DNA from: Pseudomonadota bacterium
GTDB taxonomy: Bacteria; Pseudomonadota; Gammaproteobacteria; Burkholderiales; Rhodocyclaceae
Assembly (NCBI GenBank): GCA_039805725.1
Contig: JBDLTT010000040.1
Location: 1,309-65,308, forward strand
Direction: 5' to 3'
Length of the DNA stretch: 64,000 bases
Within the stretch, counting starts at the first letter, position 1. Every line of letters begins with the position of its first letter. The notes beneath the pieces are model-generated. The model did no database searches and was not told the origin of the DNA. It saw only the letters and a program-made list of their open reading frames with translations. Position numbers and translations under genes: made by a program. Positions 50,495 through 62,067 of the stretch are shown here, piece after piece.

Positions 50495-50571
50495 TGGTAG
50501 GCGCGATTGGACTCGAACCAACGACCCCCACCATGTCAAGGTGGTGCTCTAACCAGCTGAGCTACGCGCCT
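50495..50571 (-). tRNA. tRNA-Val(GAC)
   Basis: AGGCGCGTAGCTCAGCTGGTTAGAGCACCACCTTGACATGGTGG...GTTCGAGTCCAATCGCGCCTACCA. Confidence 0.96.
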
Positions 50572-50628: not shown

Positions 50629-50910
50629 TCAGCGTAGTAGCCACCATTTGCCGAGCCCCAGAGCCAACCAGAGCGAAAGCAGCGCAAAAAACAGCAAAAT
50701 TTCGCGGGCTGCAAAGCCACCTCCTGGCCAGAGCTTGCCGATCAGACTGCGGGGCGGCTGCAGAATCGTGTCAAACAAGCGCAGTACGGCGTTGCCTTTG
50801 CCTGCCTGGCCGGCCAATAGCGCGAGCAGCGCCCGGCCAACGACAATCCAGACGATCAACTCAATGACCGCACGTAATGCTACCAGGGCAAAGAGCACTC
50901 CCGAGGTCAT
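50629..50910 (-). CDS. Small membrane protein, YggT-like
   Basis: Two hydrophobic segments around NAVLRLFDTILQPPRSLIGKLWP; ATGA overlap with the symporter stop. Confidence 0.7.
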   Translation of the reverse strand: MTSGVLFALVALRAVIELIVWIVVGRALLALLAGQAGKGNAVLRLFDTILQPPRSLIGKLWPGGGFAAREILLFFALLSLWLALGLGKWWLLR

Positions 50911-53243
50911 TGCTCATCAACGCCAAATTCACGATCCAGGCGGTTCATCCAGTAGGCGTAAATAGCGATCAGCAGTAGATAAACGATCAATGCGCCTTTA
51001 GCACCAATCATGTAACCCAGCGGTAATCCGAGCAATATCCATTGATCCAGCCAGCGCGCAGCAAAACTGGCCACGAAGGTCACCATAAACCAGATACCAA
51101 GCAACAAAAGCGTTCCGGACAAGGTTTTGAGCCAATACCGGCGCTGCTGTTGGCGGAGGGAGTCTGGACCATGCCCCTCCTCGACACCCAGTCCACGGCT
51201 ATAGAGAATTCTCGGGTAGCGCAAACGTTCGATGAACTGCTGCGCTTCGGCGGACGGCGGCGATGTAAGCAGGCTGACCAAAATGTTGGTCAAGAACCCG
51301 GCCGGAACGCCAAAGACGGCGGCTGCCGACGCCTCGATGCCGAACCAGGGATCCATACCGATACCGTACCAGCCTAGCCATGGAATACTGTCAAACCGGA
51401 CGCGCGCGATGTAATACACCGTCAGCGCCAGGCCCACGATGATCCCGGCGATCGCGCCGTGACGATTGGCGCGCGGCCAGAAAATCGCCAAAACCAGCGC
51501 CGGAAAGAGCGCCGCGCCCGATAGCGAGAATGCCCACGCCACCATGTCGACCAGCGTCGCCGGTCGCTGCACCGCGATGGCGGCAGCGACAATGGCTACC
51601 GTCACCAACACGGATTTCGAGACGATCAGCCGCCAGGACGAGGATGCATCGGGCCGCAACATCTTGAAATAAATATCGTGCGAAAACGCCGAGGTGATCG
51701 ACAACAGCAATCCCTCCGATGTCGATAAGGCGGCCGCCAGGCCGCCGACCGCCACCATGCCGGAAATGACATACGGCAGACCGGCGATCTCGGGCGTGGC
51801 AAGCACAATCACATCGGGGCTGATCGACAGTTCCGCCCACTGCATCAGATGGTCATGATTGATGTCGTCGAATGAGAAGAGACCGATGCGCGCCCAGGCA
51901 CTGACCCATGCCGGCATAGATTCAATCGGTGCGCCGATCAAATGTTGCATAACCTCCAGCTTGACGAAAATGGCGTAGGCCGGCGCCAGCAAAAAGACCA
52001 GCACCACAAAGAACAAGGTCCAGAACACGGAGCGTCTGGCCTGACTGACGCTGGCGATACTGTAATAACGCATCAGCAAATGAGGCAGGGATGCCGTACC
52101 AATGGTCAGACAAAAAACGAGTGCCAGGAAATTGATGCGGCTGTGCGCATTGTCAGGCAGCGCAAAGGCTTTGAGATCATCCACCGGTGTTGCCGATCGA
52201 CGTTTGGCTTCCCTGGCATCTGTTCGCCAAACGGCATGCGCTTCCTGGGCCGTCAGTGGCATTTGCCGTCGCTCTCGCTCTAGCTGAACGATATCGCGCG
52301 CAGGCGCATCCGTCGCCTTCAACCGCTCGATTTTTTCCGTCAGATGCTTGCGCTCGTCGGCTAGCGATTGCGGCAATCCCTCAATTTTGGCTTCAAGAAC
52401 TCGTGCCCGTTGCTCATAAAGCTGACGGACTGCAACCTCGTCGGGGCGGTTGAAAATCTCGTGTTCGAGCGTCACCAGTTGATGCATCGCCTCTGCATAC
52501 AGCACGGGCGGTGCAGGCACACCCGTTTTATCAAATGCCAGGATGGTGATCGGGGTGATGTAAGCGATCAGCAGAATAACGTACTGTGCCGCCTGGGCGT
52601 GCATGAGCGCCCGCATGCCGCCGAGAAAAGAGCAAACCAGCACGCCGGCCAATCCGAGATAGACGCCGATTTCGAACTGCAGGGTAATGAATCGACTGGT
52701 GATGAGCCCAACGCCATAGACCTGCGCAACGACATAAATCAGCGAGGCGATGATGACCGCAAACGCCCCCAGCAATCGGATCGTCTGGCCGCCGTAACGT
52801 GCGGCCAAGAAATCGGGCAAGGTGTACTGTCCGAATTTACGCAAATAAGGCGCGAGTAACAGCGCCAGCAAGACATAGCCGCCGGTCCAGCCGATGACGA
52901 AGGCCAGCCCTTGATAACCTGACTGATAAAGCGCACCAGCCAGGCCAATAAAGGAGGCAGCCGACAGCCAGTCAGTACCGGCCGACAGGCCGGCATACAT
53001 GGCGGGCACGCGGCGGCCGGCCACAAAATATTCGGCGACATCGGAGGTGCGGGTAAAGAGCCCCACCAACGAAAATACCAGCAGCGTCAAGAAAAGAAAG
53101 ACGTAACCGATCCAGCGATCACTGAGCCCTTGGCTCTCAAGCCAACCCAGCACAAGAATTGACGCGACAAAGCCAACGGCAAATAGTGTCACGAATACTG
53201 CAGGGCCATAGGCGCCGAGCAATAGCCGCAGTCGGTTTGCCAC
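50907..53243 (-). CDS. Sodium:solute symporter (ActP/VC_2705-like) with C-terminal fused DUF4212-like small subunit
   Basis: YFVAGR, DWLSAASFIG, GWTGGY, APYLRKFGQYTLPDF, GTASLPHLLMRYY, LRYP; tail RYW...IWFMVTF...GLPLGY...KGALIVY...MNRLDREFGV. Confidence 0.88.
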   Translation of the reverse strand: MANRLRLLLGAYGPAVFVTLFAVGFVASILVLGWLESQGLSDRWIGYVFLFLTLLVFSLVGLFTRTSDVAEYFVAGRRVPAMYAGLSAGTDWLSAASFIGLAGALYQSGYQGLAFVIGWTGGYVLLALLLAPYLRKFGQYTLPDFLAARYGGQTIRLLGAFAVIIASLIYVVAQVYGVGLITSRFITLQFEIGVYLGLAGVLVCSFLGGMRALMHAQAAQYVILLIAYITPITILAFDKTGVPAPPVLYAEAMHQLVTLEHEIFNRPDEVAVRQLYEQRARVLEAKIEGLPQSLADERKHLTEKIERLKATDAPARDIVQLERERRQMPLTAQEAHAVWRTDAREAKRRSATPVDDLKAFALPDNAHSRINFLALVFCLTIGTASLPHLLMRYYSIASVSQARRSVFWTLFFVVLVFLLAPAYAIFVKLEVMQHLIGAPIESMPAWVSAWARIGLFSFDDINHDHLMQWAELSISPDVIVLATPEIAGLPYVISGMVAVGGLAAALSTSEGLLLSITSAFSHDIYFKMLRPDASSSWRLIVSKSVLVTVAIVAAAIAVQRPATLVDMVAWAFSLSGAALFPALVLAIFWPRANRHGAIAGIIVGLALTVYYIARVRFDSIPWLGWYGIGMDPWFGIEASAAAVFGVPAGFLTNILVSLLTSPPSAEAQQFIERLRYPRILYSRGLGVEEGHGPDSLRQQQRRYWLKTLSGTLLLLGIWFMVTFVASFAARWLDQWILLGLPLGYMIGAKGALIVYLLLIAIYAYWMNRLDREFGVDEQ

Positions 53244-53247
53244 CCTT

Positions 53248-54315
53248 TTAGATCCGATAGGTCAGCTTCAGGCGCTGCTGAAGACGCTTGGCCTGTTTCA
53301 GACCCTCACGGAGTACCGCCTCGTCATAAGTGCTGAGCTCTTCCGGATGCAGATGGTTATCCGGTTTGATGCCTTCGGTCATAGCACGATGCTGGTGGTT
53401 CAAACGTAGTCGCTGGAGTTCGGACATTGCCTGTAACGCAGCCGACACATCAAGTTCAGACATGCCGAACTTTTGTCCGGCTTGCAAAAAACGGGTACGG
53501 GTACTGGCCGACTTCACACCGTGCGCTAGCCCGATGATGCGACCCACATCGACAAAAATTCGGATACCGTACTTTTTAATGTCGACAAACTTTTCTTTGC
53601 CCTCCTTTTCCATGACCACATCCCCGGTAAAACCGATGGGTGGTTCGGCGGCCAGTGCATTGGTGGCCATCAGGCGCAGGAAGGTTTCTGCCGAGGGCGC
53701 CCAGCGCGCCAGCATTTCACGCAATGGGTCGACCATCGAAAAATCGCCATAGAGGGGGCGCACATCGAAGAAGATCGACGCATTGAGCAAGGCCGAGGGC
53801 TCTGGCTTGTGGATCCAGTCAAAGAAGAGCGCCTTCCATTCGTCTTCTGATCGGCACCAGGCCGGATTTCCCGCCATGATGTCACCGGAACACAACGTGA
53901 AGCCACAATCGGCCAGCCGCTGATTGGTTCGCTTAGCAAATGGCAGAAACACTTCACGTAAGAGATCGGCTTCGCGTTCATCGGAGGCTGAAAAAATCAG
54001 GCCATTGTCCTGGTCGGTGACCAACGTTTGCTCGTGTCGCCCTTCCGAGCCCAGACCAATCCAGCACCAGTTGGCCGCCGGCAAACGTGCTTCTTCAGCA
54101 GTGATGGCAACGACACGTGCAGCCAGCGCGTCGTTCAGCCATGAAATGCCGTAGGTCGCCAGCGCCCCCGTTAGCCCATCATCGAGAAAGGTCTGATCAA
54201 TCCGCTGTGCCTCTTCTGCCAAAGGCAGCAAAGCCGACATGCTGCTGGTTTTTTCAATTTTGGCCGCCAGCGTCTGTGCGCGATTGACGGCAAAGGTGTT
54301 ATCGCCGAAATTCAT
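53248..54315 (-). CDS. DUF294 nucleotidyltransferase with substrate-binding domain (GlnD/GlnE-like), no CBS or cNMP domains
   Basis: GSEGRHEQTLVTDQDNG (GS...DxD), CSGDIMAGNP, SIFFDVR, DIKK. Confidence 0.88.
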   Translation of the reverse strand: MNFGDNTFAVNRAQTLAAKIEKTSSMSALLPLAEEAQRIDQTFLDDGLTGALATYGISWLNDALAARVVAITAEEARLPAANWCWIGLGSEGRHEQTLVTDQDNGLIFSASDEREADLLREVFLPFAKRTNQRLADCGFTLCSGDIMAGNPAWCRSEDEWKALFFDWIHKPEPSALLNASIFFDVRPLYGDFSMVDPLREMLARWAPSAETFLRLMATNALAAEPPIGFTGDVVMEKEGKEKFVDIKKYGIRIFVDVGRIIGLAHGVKSASTRTRFLQAGQKFGMSELDVSAALQAMSELQRLRLNHQHRAMTEGIKPDNHLHPEELSTYDEAVLREGLKQAKRLQQRLKLTYRI

Positions 54316-54316
54316 G

Positions 54317-56491
54317 TCAATACTTCACTTGAGCAAAATAGGTTTTCTGAGAGGCTTCGATGGCCTGACCGAGTGTCGTGATGCCACGATCGGCCAGCGC
54401 AGGCAACAATCGTACAAACACCTGAGCGGTCGCAGTTGCATCTGCAAGCGCGTTATGGCGCTGATCCATATGGATTCCAAGGCGCTGCATGATCGCCTCG
54501 AGGCTATGGCTCTCCTGGTTCGGATGCGCCACCGCAGACAACAACAGGGTATCGAGTACCGGTTGATCAAAACGCAGGCCCAGGGTGGCCTCCTTGATCT
54601 CGAGGAAACGCATATCGAATGCGACGTTGTGACCTACCAACACCGTATCCGCACAGAAATCATGGAAGGCCGGCAACACCTGATCAATCGTCGGTTGACC
54701 CAGCAGCACACTGTCGGTGATGCCGTGAATCGCCATACTCGCCGCCTTGAGGGGTATGCGGGGATCAACCAGCTGATCGAAATGTTCCTGCTGCAACAGC
54801 CGACCATTGAGAATGCGCAACGCACCAATCTGGATAATTTCATCGCCGTTGCCCGGCTCCAGGCCGGTAGTTTCGGTATCAAAGACCGTATAGACCAGAT
54901 CAGTCAGTGGACGCTCCAGATCCACCTGACCGAGCGGCCGGTCAAAGAGATCGAAGTCGTAATATTCAGGGCGTGAATCGCCATCGCGTACGATCAGTTC
55001 GACACGCTCATCCGGTGAGGCACGCGGGATGAGCAAACGCAGCGATGCCTGATTCGCCGCACGCTGTCGTTGATACCAGATCTCGCCCCCATGCCGATCC
55101 AGCACTTCGCGCAGGGTGGGCGGGTTGACGCCGTGTCCATCGCGCATCGGCTCAATTTCCCAAGACAATACCGTCTCTGAGGACATCGACAAACCCAGCC
55201 AGAGTAGATCGATGTGTACAAAACGTTCGTCGCTACCCAAAGCGAGTGTCAGCGAACGAACCTCACCACTTTCTTCAATACGTGACGCCAGGAAGGTGAG
55301 TGCCGATACCAATGCAAAGCTGTCTGCCCGCACCCAAAGCGCTTCGGGTGTATCCGTTTGCAGGTTAACAGGAATCTTCAGCCGGGATTCGATCCGGCGG
55401 CTCGCCGCTTCCAGTATATCGGCCGCCATCATGTCATCCAGCGGCCAGTTCTGACGCAGCGAATCGGCGACTGTTTTAAGTGTCATATCCAGACGTTCGC
55501 TCATGCGCTTCACTTCTGACGACAAGACCCCGATAAACCGGTCACGATCCTGCGGTGCCATCTCGGGGTTGTCAGCCAGCATTTCCACTGCGGCGCGCAG
55601 CGTGCCCAGCGATGCACGACTCCCCTCCGTTAGCTCACCCAGGGCAGCATCACGTTTGGCATCTTGCTCCAGAGCACGCGTGATATTTTCAATGAGCAGA
55701 ATGTAGCCTGAGGCCGTCTGTATCCCTTCCAACTCCCGTAACACGGGCGCGATCTGCACGCGGATCAATTGGCTGCTATCGGTCGTTGTTACAAAGTTGG
55801 CGATAGCATGGCGATTACCCCGCTCCAACTGGATACGAATCGTTTCCCGCGCGTAATCGACCTGGCTGGCCTCAAGAATCGAGCTAATGGAACGCCCCAA
55901 CCCAATCAGCGCACCACTCGAAACCGAAGTCGGCCCCTTGGCCAGCGACTCGAACATAAATCGTGCACGATTGTTATAGAGCAGAATTCGCCCGTCCAGA
56001 TTACAAACCACGACAGCCTGCGCCAACTCAGACATCAGTGCTGCCAGACGATTCTTTTCTTCTTCGACATTACTCTTGGCTTTGGCAACCTGGGCTTCTA
56101 CGTCATCGATATAGGCATCACGCTGGGTTGCCAGATCGTTAATCGCGCGCACCAGCTCACGGAGCTCTGGTGGGCCCTCTTCCGTAATACGAAAGGAGCG
56201 ATTCGAGCCCAGCATCAGGCGCAATTCTTCGACCATCGCCGCCATTCCCGTCACATAACGGTTAAACAGGCGGCGAACCAGGGCGAGACCCAGAACAAAC
56301 CCCGTTGCTGTCAGAACACCGCCTAACGGCACCTGGGGCAATAAATGCTGAACCAGTACCTCACGCATACCGGGGGATGCACCAGCCCAGATCAATACAG
56401 AGGTCAGTAGGAAGGGGCCCGTCATCAACATGCCGAGCACCAACACAGCAAGGACGAAACGCCACTTGGCCTTTAGATCACGCAAAAACAT
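54317..56491 (-). CDS. Membrane PAS / pseudo-histidine-kinase / DEDDh 3'-5' exonuclease fusion protein
   Basis: 2 TM, HAMP-like segment, PAS (AVVVCNLDGRILLYN), His-less DHp, then VFDTETTG, GHNVAFD, HNALADA. Confidence 0.88.
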   Translation of the reverse strand: MFLRDLKAKWRFVLAVLVLGMLMTGPFLLTSVLIWAGASPGMREVLVQHLLPQVPLGGVLTATGFVLGLALVRRLFNRYVTGMAAMVEELRLMLGSNRSFRITEEGPPELRELVRAINDLATQRDAYIDDVEAQVAKAKSNVEEEKNRLAALMSELAQAVVVCNLDGRILLYNNRARFMFESLAKGPTSVSSGALIGLGRSISSILEASQVDYARETIRIQLERGNRHAIANFVTTTDSSQLIRVQIAPVLRELEGIQTASGYILLIENITRALEQDAKRDAALGELTEGSRASLGTLRAAVEMLADNPEMAPQDRDRFIGVLSSEVKRMSERLDMTLKTVADSLRQNWPLDDMMAADILEAASRRIESRLKIPVNLQTDTPEALWVRADSFALVSALTFLASRIEESGEVRSLTLALGSDERFVHIDLLWLGLSMSSETVLSWEIEPMRDGHGVNPPTLREVLDRHGGEIWYQRQRAANQASLRLLIPRASPDERVELIVRDGDSRPEYYDFDLFDRPLGQVDLERPLTDLVYTVFDTETTGLEPGNGDEIIQIGALRILNGRLLQQEHFDQLVDPRIPLKAASMAIHGITDSVLLGQPTIDQVLPAFHDFCADTVLVGHNVAFDMRFLEIKEATLGLRFDQPVLDTLLLSAVAHPNQESHSLEAIMQRLGIHMDQRHNALADATATAQVFVRLLPALADRGITTLGQAIEASQKTYFAQVKY

Positions 56492-56559
56492 GGGCTATCC
56501 CTATCACTACATTTACCTCAAACTGTTTAATTATGCGCTTTCTTGCATGCGCTTAACAG

Positions 56560-56925
56560 TCAGGCCAGCACCTCGCGGATCTTAACCACCAGATCCTTGG
56601 TAGAAAACGGCTTCAGCATATAGGCATCGGCGCCAAGCGCCAGCCCCTTGGCTTGCTCCGTATCGCGTCCCTTGGCGGTGAGCATAATGATTTTGAGTGA
56701 TGCCAGCGACGTATCGGCTCGCAGAATCTCGCAAACCTCGAACCCGGATTTCTTGGGCATCATCACGTCGAGCAATACCAGGTCGGGGTTAAAGCTGCGG
56801 ACTTTATCAATCGCCGCATCACCATCCCCGGCAGTATCAATTTGGAAACCTTCCTTCTTGAGCAGAAACTCTAGTGACATCACGATATTAGGTTCATCGT
56901 CGACAATGAGGATCTTATGGGTCAT
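56560..56925 (-). CDS. Single-domain response regulator (receiver only)
   Basis: IVDD, LLDVMMP, LTA, KPF; 121 aa from ATG 56925 after AAGGAG. Confidence 0.93.
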   Translation of the reverse strand: MTHKILIVDDEPNIVMSLEFLLKKEGFQIDTAGDGDAAIDKVRSFNPDLVLLDVMMPKKSGFEVCEILRADTSLASLKIIMLTAKGRDTEQAKGLALGADAYMLKPFSTKDLVVKIREVLA

Positions 56926-56941
56926 CGCAGTCTCCTTGGCG

Positions 56942-59695
56942 TCATGCATCTGACAATGGAATGGTAAAGAGGAAGGTGGAGCCGGATTCGATCTCATCGC
57001 CAGCGGCAGTGGTGCCGCCCGTCGTGCTCTCAACCCAGAGTTTGCCACCAAAGTGTTCAATAATTTCTCGGCTAATCGGCAGCCCAAGCCCGGTACCCTG
57101 GGGCTTATCGGTCATGGTATTGCCGCCCTGGCGAAATCGTTCGAAGATGATTTCCTGATAAGCCTCCGGGATACCGGGGCCGTTATCATGTACTGCCACG
57201 ATGGCAAAACCATTACTGCGGCTCAGGCGCACCGTGATACGACCGTTGCCTTCCGGTACGAACTTCACGGCATTAGACAATAGGTTGATGATCACCTGCT
57301 TGATTCGGTCCCGATCCACATCCACCAGCACCGGCAGATTATCTTCTGGCAGGGTGATCACACAGTCCGCACCGCGTGTCCGGAAGAGCTGACCCAGAGA
57401 CGCTGCTGTCTCGTCAACCAGTTCACGCAAATCCAGTTGCTCAACCAGCCAATCGACCCGACCGGACTCCAGCTTGGCAAAATCGAGAATCTGGTTGATC
57501 AGCCGGGTCAGACGCTCGGCCTCCCCGACGATGATGCCCAGAAACCGCGTACGGTCCTCTTCTGCCATCTCCGGGTCGGCGTGCAGCATCTCGGAAAACG
57601 CACGAATCGAGGTCAATGGTGTGCGCAGTTCATGGGTCACCGTCGACATAAAGTCGTCTTTCAGCCGATCAACTTCCATCAACTTATCATTGGCGGCACG
57701 CAGTTCACGACTCGCTTCTTCCAGCTCTGCCGATTTGCGTTCCAGTTCCCGCGAGTGCGCACGCACCTGAGAAGCCTCATCCAGAATGTTCAGCACCTCA
57801 TCAAAACCGAGCTCTTCTTCCTGAACGACAGAACTGACCATCACATGGGCGCTGGCAGAGCCAATCGTACCGGCCAACTGTGTTTCTGCAAACATCACAA
57901 AATCAGCATCCGCTTTGAGTTCGCCAATTTTGCCAATCCCACGATCCTTGGCGTAGCGCTGCAATCGACTCTGCGCCTGTTTGGGTCCCAGAAAACGCTT
58001 AAGCAACTCGATCAGGGAGTCTGCAGAGGCCGTACCACGCCATATTTTTGGCGCGAGCGATACCGAACTGTTGATGTTGACGAATTGACTGGCTGTTGCT
58101 AATTCATTGGCATTCTGTCGGGTCAGCATGGAGACAATCACATATCCACCCAGGTTGAATAGGAGGCTCCAGAACAGCGAGTGTGCGATCGGATCCAGGG
58201 TTGTTAGACCAAACAAACCATGCGCCGCCAAGCCATCGATGCCCCACGGCCCTTGCGTAATGAAATCACTTGCGATCCAGCCTGATTTACCAAATGAGGG
58301 TAACAGCGCCGTATAGAGCCAGACGGCAAACCCCAACAGCAGCCCGACCATCGCTCCCTGCCGATTACCTTCTTTCCAGTACATACCCCCCAACAGCGAT
58401 GGTGCAAATTGTGCGACCGCCAGAAACGAGATGAGTCCAATCGATACGAGCGCGTACGCCTCACCGGCAAAGCGGAAATAGAGGTAGCCCAGAAAGAGCA
58501 GAAACACAATGGTGCAGCGACGAATCAACATGATCACGCCGCTCAGATCTTTACGGGTCGTGAAATCGAAGCGGCCATGCAGCAGAATTGGCATCACCAG
58601 GTCATTGGAAACCATGGTCGCCAGGGCGATCGTCTCTACAATCACCATACCGGTTGCCGCCGACAACCCCCCCAGGAAGGCCAACATCGCCATCGCATTG
58701 GTACCCTCGGCGAGTGGCATGGTCAGAACCAGGGTGTCTGCTTCGAAAGCTTGTCCATTGAACTGAATCAGTCCCGCCAGCGCAATCGGTAAGACAAATA
58801 TATTGATCAGCAAAAGATAAAGCGGAAACATCCAGACCGCCCGCCGCATATGTGTTTCATCAACGTTTTCTACAACCGTAATCTGGAACTGCCGAGGCAA
58901 CATCAGAATGGCCAAGCCGGAAAGTAATGTCAGCGCAAACCAGTTACCAAAATTAATCGATTCCGGCTGTAACAAACGGGCAATTGCCGGAATGGCCTCA
59001 GCGCGGGCGAAAAGGTCACCAAAACCGTCGTTCAGATACCAGACCACATAGGCGCCGACGGCAAGGAAGGCAATGAGCTTGAAAACAGATTCAAACGCGA
59101 TGGCCAGCACCATGCCCTCATGGCGCTCGGTCACATCCAGATGACGCGTACCAAAAACAATCGTAAACGCCGCCAGAATGATGGCAATCACCGCTGTCGA
59201 ATCCGGCATGAACGCCAGTGATTCCAACGCATCCGGAATCAAGGCCTGCGCATCGTCCGGGAACAAGATCTTGAGGCTATAGGAAATCGCCTTCAATTGC
59301 AGCGCGATATAGGGAATAATCCCCACCACGGCAATCACGGTCACCAGTCCCGCCAGCAACTGGCTCTTGCCGTAGCGCGCCGCAATAAAATCAGCGATCG
59401 ACGTCAGGCGCAACGTTTTGCTCACGCGGATCATCTTGAGAATGACGGCCGCAAACAGGAACATGATCGTCGGGCCGAGATAAATGGTCAGGAAGCTAAA
59501 ACCACCCGTGGTAGCGCGCCCCACGCTACCGTAAAAGGTCCACGATGTGCAGTACACAGCGATCGCTAAGGCGTAAACCGTCGATGTAATCACCGAACGC
59601 CCGGCATCCGCACGACGATCGCCGAAGCGGGCAACGGCAAACAAAAGACCCAGATAGACAAAGGTCAACAGCGCGACGACCCATGTTGCAATCAT
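56942..59695 (-). CDS. SLC5(SSS)-STAC sensor histidine kinase (CrbS/CbrA-like)
   Basis: AVYCTSWTFYGSVG, LPRQF, STAC-like FAETQLAGTIGSASA, H-box THELRTPL, NLLSNA, DNGPG, GTGLGL. Confidence 0.92.
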   Translation of the reverse strand: MIATWVVALLTFVYLGLLFAVARFGDRRADAGRSVITSTVYALAIAVYCTSWTFYGSVGRATTGGFSFLTIYLGPTIMFLFAAVILKMIRVSKTLRLTSIADFIAARYGKSQLLAGLVTVIAVVGIIPYIALQLKAISYSLKILFPDDAQALIPDALESLAFMPDSTAVIAIILAAFTIVFGTRHLDVTERHEGMVLAIAFESVFKLIAFLAVGAYVVWYLNDGFGDLFARAEAIPAIARLLQPESINFGNWFALTLLSGLAILMLPRQFQITVVENVDETHMRRAVWMFPLYLLLINIFVLPIALAGLIQFNGQAFEADTLVLTMPLAEGTNAMAMLAFLGGLSAATGMVIVETIALATMVSNDLVMPILLHGRFDFTTRKDLSGVIMLIRRCTIVFLLFLGYLYFRFAGEAYALVSIGLISFLAVAQFAPSLLGGMYWKEGNRQGAMVGLLLGFAVWLYTALLPSFGKSGWIASDFITQGPWGIDGLAAHGLFGLTTLDPIAHSLFWSLLFNLGGYVIVSMLTRQNANELATASQFVNINSSVSLAPKIWRGTASADSLIELLKRFLGPKQAQSRLQRYAKDRGIGKIGELKADADFVMFAETQLAGTIGSASAHVMVSSVVQEEELGFDEVLNILDEASQVRAHSRELERKSAELEEASRELRAANDKLMEVDRLKDDFMSTVTHELRTPLTSIRAFSEMLHADPEMAEEDRTRFLGIIVGEAERLTRLINQILDFAKLESGRVDWLVEQLDLRELVDETAASLGQLFRTRGADCVITLPEDNLPVLVDVDRDRIKQVIINLLSNAVKFVPEGNGRITVRLSRSNGFAIVAVHDNGPGIPEAYQEIIFERFRQGGNTMTDKPQGTGLGLPISREIIEHFGGKLWVESTTGGTTAAGDEIESGSTFLFTIPLSDA

Positions 59696-59925
59696 GACGT
59701 GCCCCGGTCGACGTTTGATTTGAGCTGCCCACTGGTCGACGGCTCGGTGATGCGGCGCGCGATGAGAATCACCGCCAACCACCATACAAAGAGAAGCACA
59801 TAAAGTAACGGCCAATCACCCACACTACCGCGATACAGCGAAAGCAATGGGTAATTGAATACCAGCAGAGACACAAAGCCGATGACCCCCAGCTTGAGCA
59901 AGGTCTTCTGCATGGCTTTGGGCAT
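59692..59925 (-). CDS. Small two-TM membrane protein coupled to the kinase
   Basis: AAGGAG RBS; FNYPLL...WPLLYVLLFVWW; ATGA overlap with kinase start. Confidence 0.8.
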   Translation of the reverse strand: MPKAMQKTLLKLGVIGFVSLLVFNYPLLSLYRGSVGDWPLLYVLLFVWWLAVILIARRITEPSTSGQLKSNVDRGTS

Positions 59926-59954: not shown

Positions 59955-59992
59955 AGAGAAAAACCGGCGCAGACTCCCGCGCCGGTTTCTCT
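59955..59992 (-). terminator. Terminator-like hairpin after acs
   Basis: AGAAACCGGCGC-GGGAGTCT-GCGCCGGTTTTTCT on minus strand. Confidence 0.7.
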
Positions 59993-60111
59993 GTCAATCA
60001 TTGGCTGATTTCTGATGATCAGCTCAAAATCCGGCTTTCACCGGTGTCGCGAGCCACCCTCCTCCTGAATGATCGCGACGGGAGCGCCGGTACCGGCGCT
60101 CCTGATCCCGC

Positions 60112-62067
60112 TTAGCCCTTGAGCTGCTCAAGGATATGCGGGTTTTCCAGCGTCGAGGTATCTTGCGTGACTTCCTCACCCTTAGCCAGGGAGCGGAGCA
60201 GACGACGCATGATCTTGCCCGAACGGGTCTTCGGCAGGTTCTCACCAAAGCGGATGTCTTTCGGCTTGGCGATCGGACCGATTTCCTTACCTACCCAATC
60301 CGACAGTTCCTTGATGACCTTCTTGGCTTCATCTCCGGTCGGGCGCGAACCCTTCAGCACGACAAACGCCACAATCGCTTCACCGGTCAGATCATCCGGA
60401 CGGCCGACCACCGCAGCTTCGGCCACCAGCGGATTTGCCACCAGCGCCGATTCGATTTCCATGGTGCCCATACGGTGACCCGACACGTTCAGTACGTCAT
60501 CGATACGACCGGTAATGGTGAAGTAACCATTTTCGGCATCACGGATAGCGCCGTCACCGGCCAGATACAGCTTGCCACCCAGATCTTCCGGGAAGTACGA
60601 CTTCTTGAATCGATCAGGATCGCCCCAGACCATACGAATCATCGACGGCCAAGGCTTCTTCACGACCAGGATACCGCCCTGACCCCATGGCACTTCGTTG
60701 CCGGTCTCGTCGACCACGGCGGCCTGGATGCCCGGGAACGGCAGCGTGCACGAACCCGGCACCAGCGGCGTTGCACCCGGCATCGGGGTGATCATGTGAC
60801 CACCGGTTTCGGTCTGCCAGAAGGTATCGACGATCGGGCAGCGGCCGCCACCCACGTTCTCGTAGTACCACTCCCAGGCGGCCGGGTTGATCGGCTCACC
60901 GACCGAACCCATCAAGCGCAAGCTCGACAGATCATACTTCTTCGGATGGATCGCCGGATCAGCATCGGCCGCCTTGATCAGCGAACGGATGGCGGTCGGC
61001 GCGGTGTAGAAAATATTAACCTTGTGCTTCTGAATCATGTCCCAGAAACGGCCGGCGTTCGGATAGGTCGGCACGCCTTCAAACACGACTTCGGTACCAC
61101 CACACGCCAACGGGCCATAGGTGATATAGGTGTGGCCCGTGACCCAACCGATATCGGCCGTGCACCAGAAGACGTCTTCTTTCTTCAGGTCGAAGGTGTA
61201 GAGCATCGTGAGCATGGCGTGCAGCAGGTAACCGCCCGTCGAGTGCTGAACGCCCTTCGGCTTGCCGGTCGAACCCGAGGTGTAGAGCAGGAACAGCGGA
61301 TGCTCGGCTTCAACCCAGACCGGATCACACTTGTCCGACTGCTTGTCGACCACATCACTGGCCCATACGTCGCGGCCAGCCGTCATATTAACTTCGGTAC
61401 CCGTGCGCTTGAACACCAGCACTTTCTTGCAACCGTCACAGCCACCCATACCAAAAGCTTCATCGGCGATGGCCTTCAGCGGTAACGCCTTACCACCACG
61501 GAACTGACCGTCGGTGGTCACCAGCACCTTGGCGCCGGCATCTTCGATACGGTCACGCAGCGACTGCGCCGAGAAGCCACCGAACACCACCGAGTGCGTT
61601 GCGCCGATGCGGGCACAGGCTTGCATCGTAGCAATGCCATCAATCGTCATCGGCATGTAAATAATGACGCGATCACCCTTCTGTACACCCAGCTCCTTCA
61701 GTGCGTTGGCAATCTTGCAAACGCGAGCCAGCAGTTCTTTGTAAGTGACTTTGGTCACCTGGCCATCGTCGGCTTCGAAGATGATTGCAACTTTGTCACC
61801 CAGACCTTTTTCGATCTGACGATCCAGACAGTTGTAGGAGGCATTCAGCTTGCCATCAACAAACCAGCCGTAGGTCGGCGCCTTCGACTCGTCGAGTGTC
61901 TTGGTAAACGGGGTTTGCCAGCTTAGTAGTTCCTTAGCGCGCTTGGCCCAGAAACCCTCGTAATCTTTTTCTGCTTCGGCACACAGCGCCTTGTACCCAT
62001 CCATGCCCGAAACTGCAGCGTTCTTCACGAAATCCGGGGACGGTTGGTACACCTTGGCATTCGACAT
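60112..62067 (-). CDS. acs: Acetyl-CoA synthetase
   Basis: [44 protein letters not shown]. Confidence 0.98.

Follow-up and report, generated by a model that had tools for sequence, protein, structure and literature searches.

Seven co-oriented genes lying downstream of acs in a 64,000-nucleotide stretch of DNA (hereafter the window, meaning that whole stretch) were analysed, and are best read as a post-translational two-component circuit for monocarboxylate uptake, in which a DUF294 nucleotidyltransferase would write a nucleotidyl mark and the exonuclease encoded by a gene here called exoF would erase it. This reading is held tentatively, at somewhat less than an even chance. The writer/eraser scheme has gained support from the predicted fold of the DUF294 protein, from synteny across genomes and from published genetics; the receiver step, the chemistry of the eraser and the target of the mark are what we infer. 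The window is part of contig C40 of a 1.44-Mb metagenome-assembled genome (MAG; 83% complete), and the close homologues of its proteins carry the name Fluviibacter.

All eight open reading frames (ORFs; acs and the seven genes) were present on the minus strand at the coordinates given below, with spacings of 186 nucleotides (nt) between acs and small77, -4 nt (an ATGA overlap) between small77 and the kinase gene, 16 nt between kinase and receiver, 68 nt between receiver and exoF, 1 nt between exoF and DUF294, 4 nt between DUF294 and the symporter gene, and -4 nt between the latter and small93. The original prediction, made from the sequence before this analysis, had described seven tightly packed, co-oriented genes after acs and none with a DNA-binding domain; the ORFs and spacings bore out the former, and domain searches with Pfam and NCBIfam gave no DNA-binding domain in any of the seven. 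In the order of transcription, the features are:

60112-62067, minus strand: acs, acetate--CoA ligase, 651 amino acids (aa); 1018 bits to NF001208 and 964 bits to TIGR02188, each exceeding its cut-off
59957-59992, minus strand: terminator-like hairpin with a 16-bp GC-rich stem followed by a U tract, from the fold of the acs-small77 spacer
59692-59925, minus strand: small77, a 77-aa peptide with two transmembrane (TM) segments, overlapping the kinase gene at ATGA; likened by position to CbrX
56942-59695, minus strand: SLC5-type transceptor histidine kinase, 917 aa, from Pfam, NCBIfam and a match to CbrA chain 10ED; SLC5 58286-59674, HisKA 57461-57661, HATPase_c 56951-57316
56560-56925, minus strand: single-domain response regulator (REC only), 121 aa; Response_reg at 100.9 bits
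54317-56491, minus strand: exoF, 724 aa, from an AlphaFold (AF2) model, Foldseek and RNase_T; TM hairpin 56300-56470, PAS 55685-56017, His-less DHp 55469-55681, degenerate CA 55019-55438, DEDDh exonuclease 54329-54895
54944-54973, minus strand: linker motif R-P-E-[FY]-Y-D-F-D-L-F, exoF residues 507-516, from the family alignment
53248-54315, minus strand: sensor-less DUF294 nucleotidyltransferase, 355 aa; NTase 53797-54207, DUF294_C 53257-53685
50907-53243, minus strand: VC_2705-family Na+/solute symporter, 778 aa, from TIGR03648 and TIGR03647; helical insertion 52119-52481, fused DUF4212 small subunit 50916-51146
50629-50910, minus strand: small93, a 93-aa protein with two TM segments, overlapping the symporter stop by 4 nt

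The DUF294 protein matched the Pfam families DUF294 (137 bits) and DUF294_C (130 bits), and Pfam found in it neither the CBS nor the cNMP domains that most of its relatives carry. Residues G89, S90, D101 and D103 were invariant. Both halves of GlnE, and DrrA, are enzymes of protein-tyrosine AMPylation, and it was these that the AF2 model (pLDDT 95) matched over about 300 of its 355 residues (GlnE AT-N, Z 26.2; GlnE AT-C, 25.3; DrrA, 24.1) in a search of 48,161 PDB chains; among the best 50 matches listed, the next unrelated structures reached at most 12.6, each covering single sub-domains, and no RNA-tailing enzyme or cyclic-nucleotide synthase stood near. The protein is thus predicted to have the GlnE/DrrA protein-AMPylase fold, and the earlier description of it as GlnE-like was upheld by this match (Z 24-26) together with the invariant G-S...D-x-D motif. 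The kinship was visible by fold alone, a sequence search against the PDB having returned nothing meaningful. GlnE and Legionella DrrA/SidM share the two-domain fold (nucleotidyltransferase plus helical substrate-binding domain) over almost the full length, as well as the G-S...D-x-D motif, but sequence identity is only 10-16%, and their marks are removed by other means: GlnE reverses its own by a second transferase-fold domain and SidD removes that of DrrA, neither using an exonuclease. The best 120 longer DUF294 homologues comprised only cNMP/CBS forms, with no exonuclease fusion among them.

For exoF, Pfam gave RNase_T at residues 536-692 (121.9 bits) and weak matches to HAMP and PAS. The AF2 model (pLDDT 83) began with a TM hairpin and long helices, followed by PAS (159-269), the DHp hairpin (271-341), an alpha/beta domain resembling CA (352-491), a linker of low confidence and the exonuclease domain (533-721). 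Foldseek matched this model to the PAS-kinases WalK, VicK, YF1 and ThkA and to the exonucleases PolC, epsilon and DinG, with an rmsd (root-mean-square deviation) of 1.7-2.5 Å between its exonuclease domain and those of PolC and epsilon. Over 84 residues the DHp hairpin shared 31% identity with its counterpart in the adjoining kinase, and Glu289 stood at the position of the phospho-acceptor His; across 43 family representatives this column held Glu in 23, followed by Gln, Asp, Lys and Ala. In the same representatives the N, G1 and G2 boxes were degenerate and D538, E540, D626, H679 and D684 invariant, and from this combination of a His-less DHp, degenerate boxes and an intact DEDDh set exoF is predicted to join a dead kinase to a live exonuclease. 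The PAS/pseudokinase/DEDDh architecture proposed in the original prediction was recovered by the alignment, the AF2 model and Foldseek alike. The sensor/pseudokinase part matched 382 clusters (50% identity) at E<=1e-30, and the members listed were mostly 705-740 aa long. The linker motif, located in the region that the model leaves disordered, was present in 41 of the 43 representatives and at 77 of 80 loci; it was kept with or without a nearby DUF294, kinase or receiver gene, so that the neighbours do not point to a partner, and might serve for docking or as a site of Tyr modification.

With the proteins of the window as queries, those 80 loci were mapped in other species (Rhodocyclales, Burkholderiales, Thiothrix, Competibacter, Xanthobacter, one Pseudomonas, Desulfobacterales and Chloroflexota bins). 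The receiver gene lay directly upstream of exoF in 62 of 70 loci, and kinase and receiver genes together did so in 51 of 65, a synteny that extended across Rhodocyclales, Burkholderiales, Thiotrichales, Xanthobacter, Desulfobacterales and others. Within 10 kb, DUF294 was found at 38, a symporter gene at 26 and acs at 14 of 44 loci, and kinase, receiver, DUF294 and symporter occurred together at 20 of these. The linkage is far beyond chance. The conserved unit is the small peptide, the kinase, the receiver and exoF, usually with DUF294; acs, the type of symporter (long VC_2705 with an insertion, standard VC_2705, or ActP/MctP-like) and small93 are variable. Of the co-occurrence of all seven genes envisaged originally, the kinase-receiver-exoF core and DUF294 therefore stood, and the seven-gene unit as such did not. 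Among 300 sampled genomes of the class, 16 carried exoF (this MAG counted) and about one quarter the DUF294 and exonuclease pair; of the other 15 with exoF, 13 also had DUF294, versus 60 of the 285 without exoF, counts in which related genomes are not independent. In a Dechloromonas locus (L004), exoF and a short DUF294 gene were immediately followed by a long cNMP/CBS-DUF294 gene and a stand-alone exonuclease-like gene (L004:15220-15888), in which the first catalytic motif was D-L-S-T-S-G instead of D-T-E-T-T-G and no Pfam match was found. The product may be an exonuclease without activity, retained as a partner, and the locus reads as two transferase/nuclease pairs, one sensed via the transferase and the other via the nuclease.

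Histidine kinases of the SLC5/STAC type (CbrA, CrbS, RpuS) have at the N-terminus an SLC5 domain (solute:sodium symporter) with 13 TM helices. In the kinase encoded here, HisKA (69.5 bits) and HATPase_c (95.4 bits) were found with the H box T-H-E-L-R-T-P-L, the SSF model gave a weak full-length match to the SLC5 part, and no PAS or REC was found by Pfam or NCBIfam. Residues 8-470 aligned to residues 11-452 of the cryo-EM chain 10ED of CbrA (phmmer, E 1.5e-66), by which the SLC5-type sensor kinase of the original prediction was confirmed as a CbrA/CrbS-like transceptor. The STAC domain named there was matched by no library model and the 10ED alignment ends at residue 470; some 200 residues separate the SLC5 domain from HisKA, leaving room for a STAC domain and a signalling helix. 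PDB entry 10ED has been identified as the Pseudomonas CbrA transceptor, in which CbrX, a hairpin of two TM helices, is bound to the SLC5 domain (PMC13022988). At no fewer than 34 of 54 loci, an ORF of 45-140 aa with two hydrophobic segments and an N[FY]PLL motif ended at the start of the kinase gene, and small77 is likened to CbrX, as a putative positional analogue, by gene overlap and two-TM topology: in Pseudomonas putida too, the gene of a small two-TM peptide overlaps the start of that of an SLC5-type kinase, as at the ATGA here. CbrA differs from the present kinase in sensing histidine, in its PAS domain and in having the sigma-54 activator CbrB as recipient of its signal.

The lone receiver belongs to a family with 73% mean identity, in which D9, D10, D53 and K105 were invariant and T83 was kept in at least 90% of members; it is an intact REC without an output domain whose phospho-acceptor residues are conserved in the family alignment, as had been supposed. 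Prediction of a complex of the receiver with two copies of exoF residues 262-500 gave an ipSAE of 0.36, versus 0.00 for the best of three controls, with agreement between runs in at least 96% of contacts and a partner pLDDT of at least 81. Of 80 solved complexes, 58 reached this ipSAE mark, as did 2 of 110 mismatched pairs; passes at or below 0.60 comprised only 7 of those 80 solved complexes, plus both mismatches. The model therefore lends weak support to docking of the receiver on the dead kinase domain of exoF, and the pass may reflect mere likeness, because solved kinase-regulator complexes exist. A comparable arrangement is DivL-DivK of Caulobacter crescentus, where a pseudokinase without the phospho-acceptor His (Tyr in DivL, mostly Glu in exoF) has a single-domain receiver as partner and signalling is proposed to run in reverse, from receiver to DHp. 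DivL keeps an ATP-binding CA domain and passes its signal to the kinase CckA, whereas in exoF the CA motifs are gone, the output would be the fused DEDDh exonuclease, and receiver binding is a weakly supported prediction.

Published genetics bear on the enzyme pair in its transcriptionally regulated form. DUF294 proteins have long been predicted to nucleotidylate proteins, and Pflu5625, a member of the CrbS/R regulon, gave no phenotype on deletion (PMC5715377). In P. alloputida, according to a preprint of September 2026, no genes depended more on the SLC5/STAC system MxtR/ErdR than the exonuclease gene PP_0353 and the DUF294 gene PP_0354; pyruvate uptake requires ActP-I, and growth on pyruvate was impaired in PP_0353, actP-I and yjcH mutants and not in the PP_0354 mutant (10.64898/2026.09.07.749794). 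Small subunits of the DUF4212 family show cofitness with an 'RNase T domain protein' encoded nearby (Price et al., 10.1101/072470). These data fit an exonuclease that promotes, and a transferase that restrains, symporter-dependent uptake. A literature search found no study of the pseudokinase-fused form of the exonuclease, and a search on DUF294/COG2905/PA3233 and on actP with exonuclease found no mechanistic study.

The CrbS/CrbR (= MxtR/ErdR) system of Vibrio and Pseudomonas resembles the present locus in having an SLC5-type transceptor kinase linked to acs and a monocarboxylate symporter, and its regulon includes, besides acs and actP/yjcH, the same pair of DUF294 protein and DnaQ-like exonuclease (PP_0354/PP_0353, Pflu5625) in the cNMP-CBS-DUF294 form. 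CrbS, however, is a hybrid kinase, whereas the kinase here has neither PAS nor a C-terminal receiver; CrbR is a LuxR-type DNA-binding regulator that activates acs, whereas the partner here is a bare 121-aa receiver; and the exonuclease is here fused to a membrane/PAS/pseudokinase module, with a transferase devoid of cNMP and CBS sensors. The link from kinase to enzyme pair, transcriptional in CrbS/R, would here be one of protein with protein.

In the proposed circuit, the kinase would sense or transport a small carboxylate and phosphorylate the receiver, which would dock on exoF at the His-less DHp, in the manner of DivK on DivL, and so switch the exonuclease. The latter would remove or trim a nucleotidyl mark set by DUF294 on a protein needed for symporter-dependent uptake, the transferase acting as brake and the exonuclease as release; as target, the symporter or its small subunit would be likelier than Acs. 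With the cNMP and CBS sensors of the transferase lost, all regulation would enter via the kinase-receiver-exonuclease arm. In its strictest form, with an output that is enzymatic only (the phospho-receiver on the dead kinase activating a DEDDh de-nucleotidylylase, which erases a tyrosine mark set by DUF294 on the symporter or small subunit, or trims an oligo-nucleotidyl chain from it), the scheme is possible and, on balance, doubtful.

Several points weigh against the circuit as a whole. The exonuclease looks like an ordinary nucleic-acid nuclease of the DnaQ/PolC type (32% identity and an rmsd of 1.7 Å to a PolC-type polymerase), and we know of no DEDDh exonuclease that takes a nucleotide off a protein; in the literature search, no biochemical activity was found for any DUF294 protein or partner exonuclease. 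On propionate, the PP_0353 and PP_0354 mutants both grow worse (10.64898/2026.09.07.749794), which a simple scheme of brake and release does not predict. A few exoF genes were without adjacent kinase and receiver genes (loci L029, L043, L055, L064 and L072), and a MAG that is 83% complete leaves room for an unlinked DNA-binding partner of the kinase. Finally, a receiver shared by kinase and exoF might make their DHp domains more alike within a genome than between genomes, and no such co-evolution signal was seen: identity was 0.284 within and 0.282 between loci, the BLOSUM score per site 1.10 and 1.08, respectively, and the stretch around the His taken alone gave p 0.009 with a negligible effect, the test as a whole being treated as uninformative.

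An action of the pair on RNA, with DUF294 tailing the 3' end of an mRNA, small RNA (sRNA) or tRNA and the exonuclease trimming it, so as to set the stability or translation of the symporter or acs transcript, is an unlikely alternative. It would suit both enzymes by class, the nuclease domain being a standard 3'-5' one of the DnaQ/RNase T type with all catalytic residues, and the textbook range of Pol-beta-type transferases including poly(A), CCA and TUTase enzymes. The DUF294 model, however, matched protein AMPylators alone at Z 24-26, with no RNA-tailing enzyme among the best 50 of the 48,161 chains and, in Foldseek, a TUTase at E >0.5 as the sole such enzyme; moreover, exoF is membrane-anchored. 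An Rfam scan of the region gave a tRNA-Val and one sub-threshold sRNA match that coincides with the terminator hairpin, and no RNA family within the operon; a look-up of RNA holders for the region listed none.

We consider it quite unlikely that the receiver is a phosphate sink or signals elsewhere, with the kinase feeding an unlinked CrbR-like regulator and exoF reading a PAS or membrane signal of its own. The characterised SLC5/STAC kinases (CrbS, CbrA, RpuS) do all act via DNA-binding regulators, and the incompleteness of the MAG, the missing DHp signal and the exoF genes without adjacent kinase and receiver would agree with such a layout. Against it stand the position of the receiver gene directly upstream of exoF at most loci, the high identity of the receiver family, as expected of a protein with several partners, and the resemblance of the exoF DHp-like hairpin to that of the kinase. 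Furthermore, five DNA-binding response regulators were found in the MAG, and all five were paired with an adjacent kinase of their own. A FixJ/GerE-type regulator on contig C15, considered as a CrbR equivalent, first looked like an orphan and was rejected, a kinase gene lying directly upstream of it; it is the only regulator of the GerE type found. No other output for the kinase was visible in the MAG, of which 17% may be missing, and the original prediction, by which no distant DNA-binding regulator serves as this output, held within the part of the genome available.

It is improbable that DUF294 makes a nucleotide messenger, an option named in the original prediction, that is, a free linear or cyclic oligonucleotide acting on the symporter or Acs and degraded by the exonuclease in the manner of oligoribonuclease and pGpG. 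Enzymes of the Pol-beta fold include cGAS/CD-NTases as well as OAS, and short oligonucleotides are degraded by DEDDh enzymes; yet the match to GlnE and DrrA spans the whole DUF294 protein, helical substrate-binding domain included, no messenger receptor domain was evident in the operon by Pfam, and no CD-NTase, OAS or cyclase was among the structural matches listed, this last point being inconclusive. It is very improbable that exoF acts on DNA as an exonuclease brought to DNA or the sliding clamp by its linker motif, with an incidental link to carboxylate genes: its closest relatives in structure and sequence are proofreading exonucleases, and the ending D-F-D-L-F resembles the clamp-binding (beta-clamp) pentapeptide, but exoF is anchored in the membrane and almost always encoded with a carboxylate-type kinase, receiver, DUF294 and symporters, and the genome has its own dnaQ.

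Under the preferred reading, that of a circuit for monocarboxylate uptake, the symporter or its small subunit would be a likelier target of the mark than Acs. The symporter exceeded the cut-off of TIGR03648 by a wide margin (666.4 bits versus 320.75), and its residues 700-777 matched TIGR03647/DUF4212 (PF13937; 75.5 bits versus 26.05). It had been described as 'ActP-type', which was not sustained (TIGR02711, 129.5 bits versus 1099; PRK09395, 165.8 versus 750); it belongs instead to the VC_2705 family. In another Fluviibacter (L012:4500-4760), symporter and DUF4212 are encoded by separate, overlapping genes, and the fusion corresponds to an 8-nt deletion of the stop codon and spacer at the junction (window 50916-51213); it may be lineage-specific or an assembly indel. 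A charged helical insertion of about 100 aa (residues ~255-375) between two TM helices was common to 16 orthologues at exoF loci and absent from standard VC_2705 symporters, and is probably periplasmic, by analogy with the TM6/7 loop of CbrA. Among 24 DUF4212 small subunits, few residues were kept in at least 90%; a Y-W pair at the N-terminus and a Tyr close to where TM2 ends on the cytoplasmic side were among them and might, speculatively and from conservation, be candidates for a tyrosine mark. An ActP-like symporter gene was seen elsewhere in the MAG (contig C38, 34302-36056).

The last gene of the seven, small93, had been called 'YggT-like', a label that was not supported at the family cut-off (PF02325, 16.2 bits versus 27; E 0.015); its Atlas neighbours were hypothetical proteins, with YggT as no more than a lead at a score of 0.88, and homologues were seen only in loci of the Rhodocyclales type (L007, L008, L009 and L012). 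Directly downstream of the module, also on the minus strand, lies a tRNA-Val (GAC) gene at 50495-50571, followed by thrS and infC.

The 186-nt spacer between acs and small77 was predicted to fold at -86.8 kcal/mol (z -6.4 versus shuffles), and from its hairpin at 59957-59992 about 30 nt, including the ribosome-binding site, remain to the start of small77. Since the hairpin is followed by a U tract, acs is probably a separate or attenuated transcription unit, and, given the short distance to small77, the seven genes probably owe their expression to read-through, or to a promoter lying upstream of the hairpin, and not simply to the acs message. A second perfect hairpin was seen just past the acs stop (60081-60103). 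A consensus scan for promoters and terminators gave counts no higher than the shuffled expectation and missed both hairpins of the spacer. The proposed linkage to acs thus stood in so far as acs is directly upstream here, and not as a general association, with a terminator-like hairpin in between and acs within 10 kb in a minority of loci. A second acyl-CoA synthetase paralogue was located about 13 kb upstream of acs and outside the window (G000:C40:76437-78353; E 1.9e-149 to acs), and is probably propionate--CoA ligase-like. No SIR2/CobB turned up in the MAG (83% complete), too weak a basis for arguing that Acs must have another modification system.

The pair of DUF294 and exonuclease belongs in Pseudomonas to the acetate/pyruvate regulon, and the variant described here is proposed to tie a sensor kinase of the same kind to the exonuclease via a receiver and a dead kinase domain. 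If the tie is transcriptional in Pseudomonas and made by protein contacts here, it would have arisen twice, which suggests that, of the pair, it is the exonuclease that is regulated and promotes uptake. The locus adds a minimal version of the system, with only one transferase, which is sensor-less, and only one exonuclease, as well as a fused symporter subunit, an acs terminator and a conserved linker motif, and the module is compact, offering five soluble or truncatable proteins and a defined candidate chemistry. Should the exonuclease indeed free protein-bound nucleotides, it would represent a new class of AMPylation/UMPylation eraser and a new type of two-component output, and the circuit would be a new way to gate transporters.

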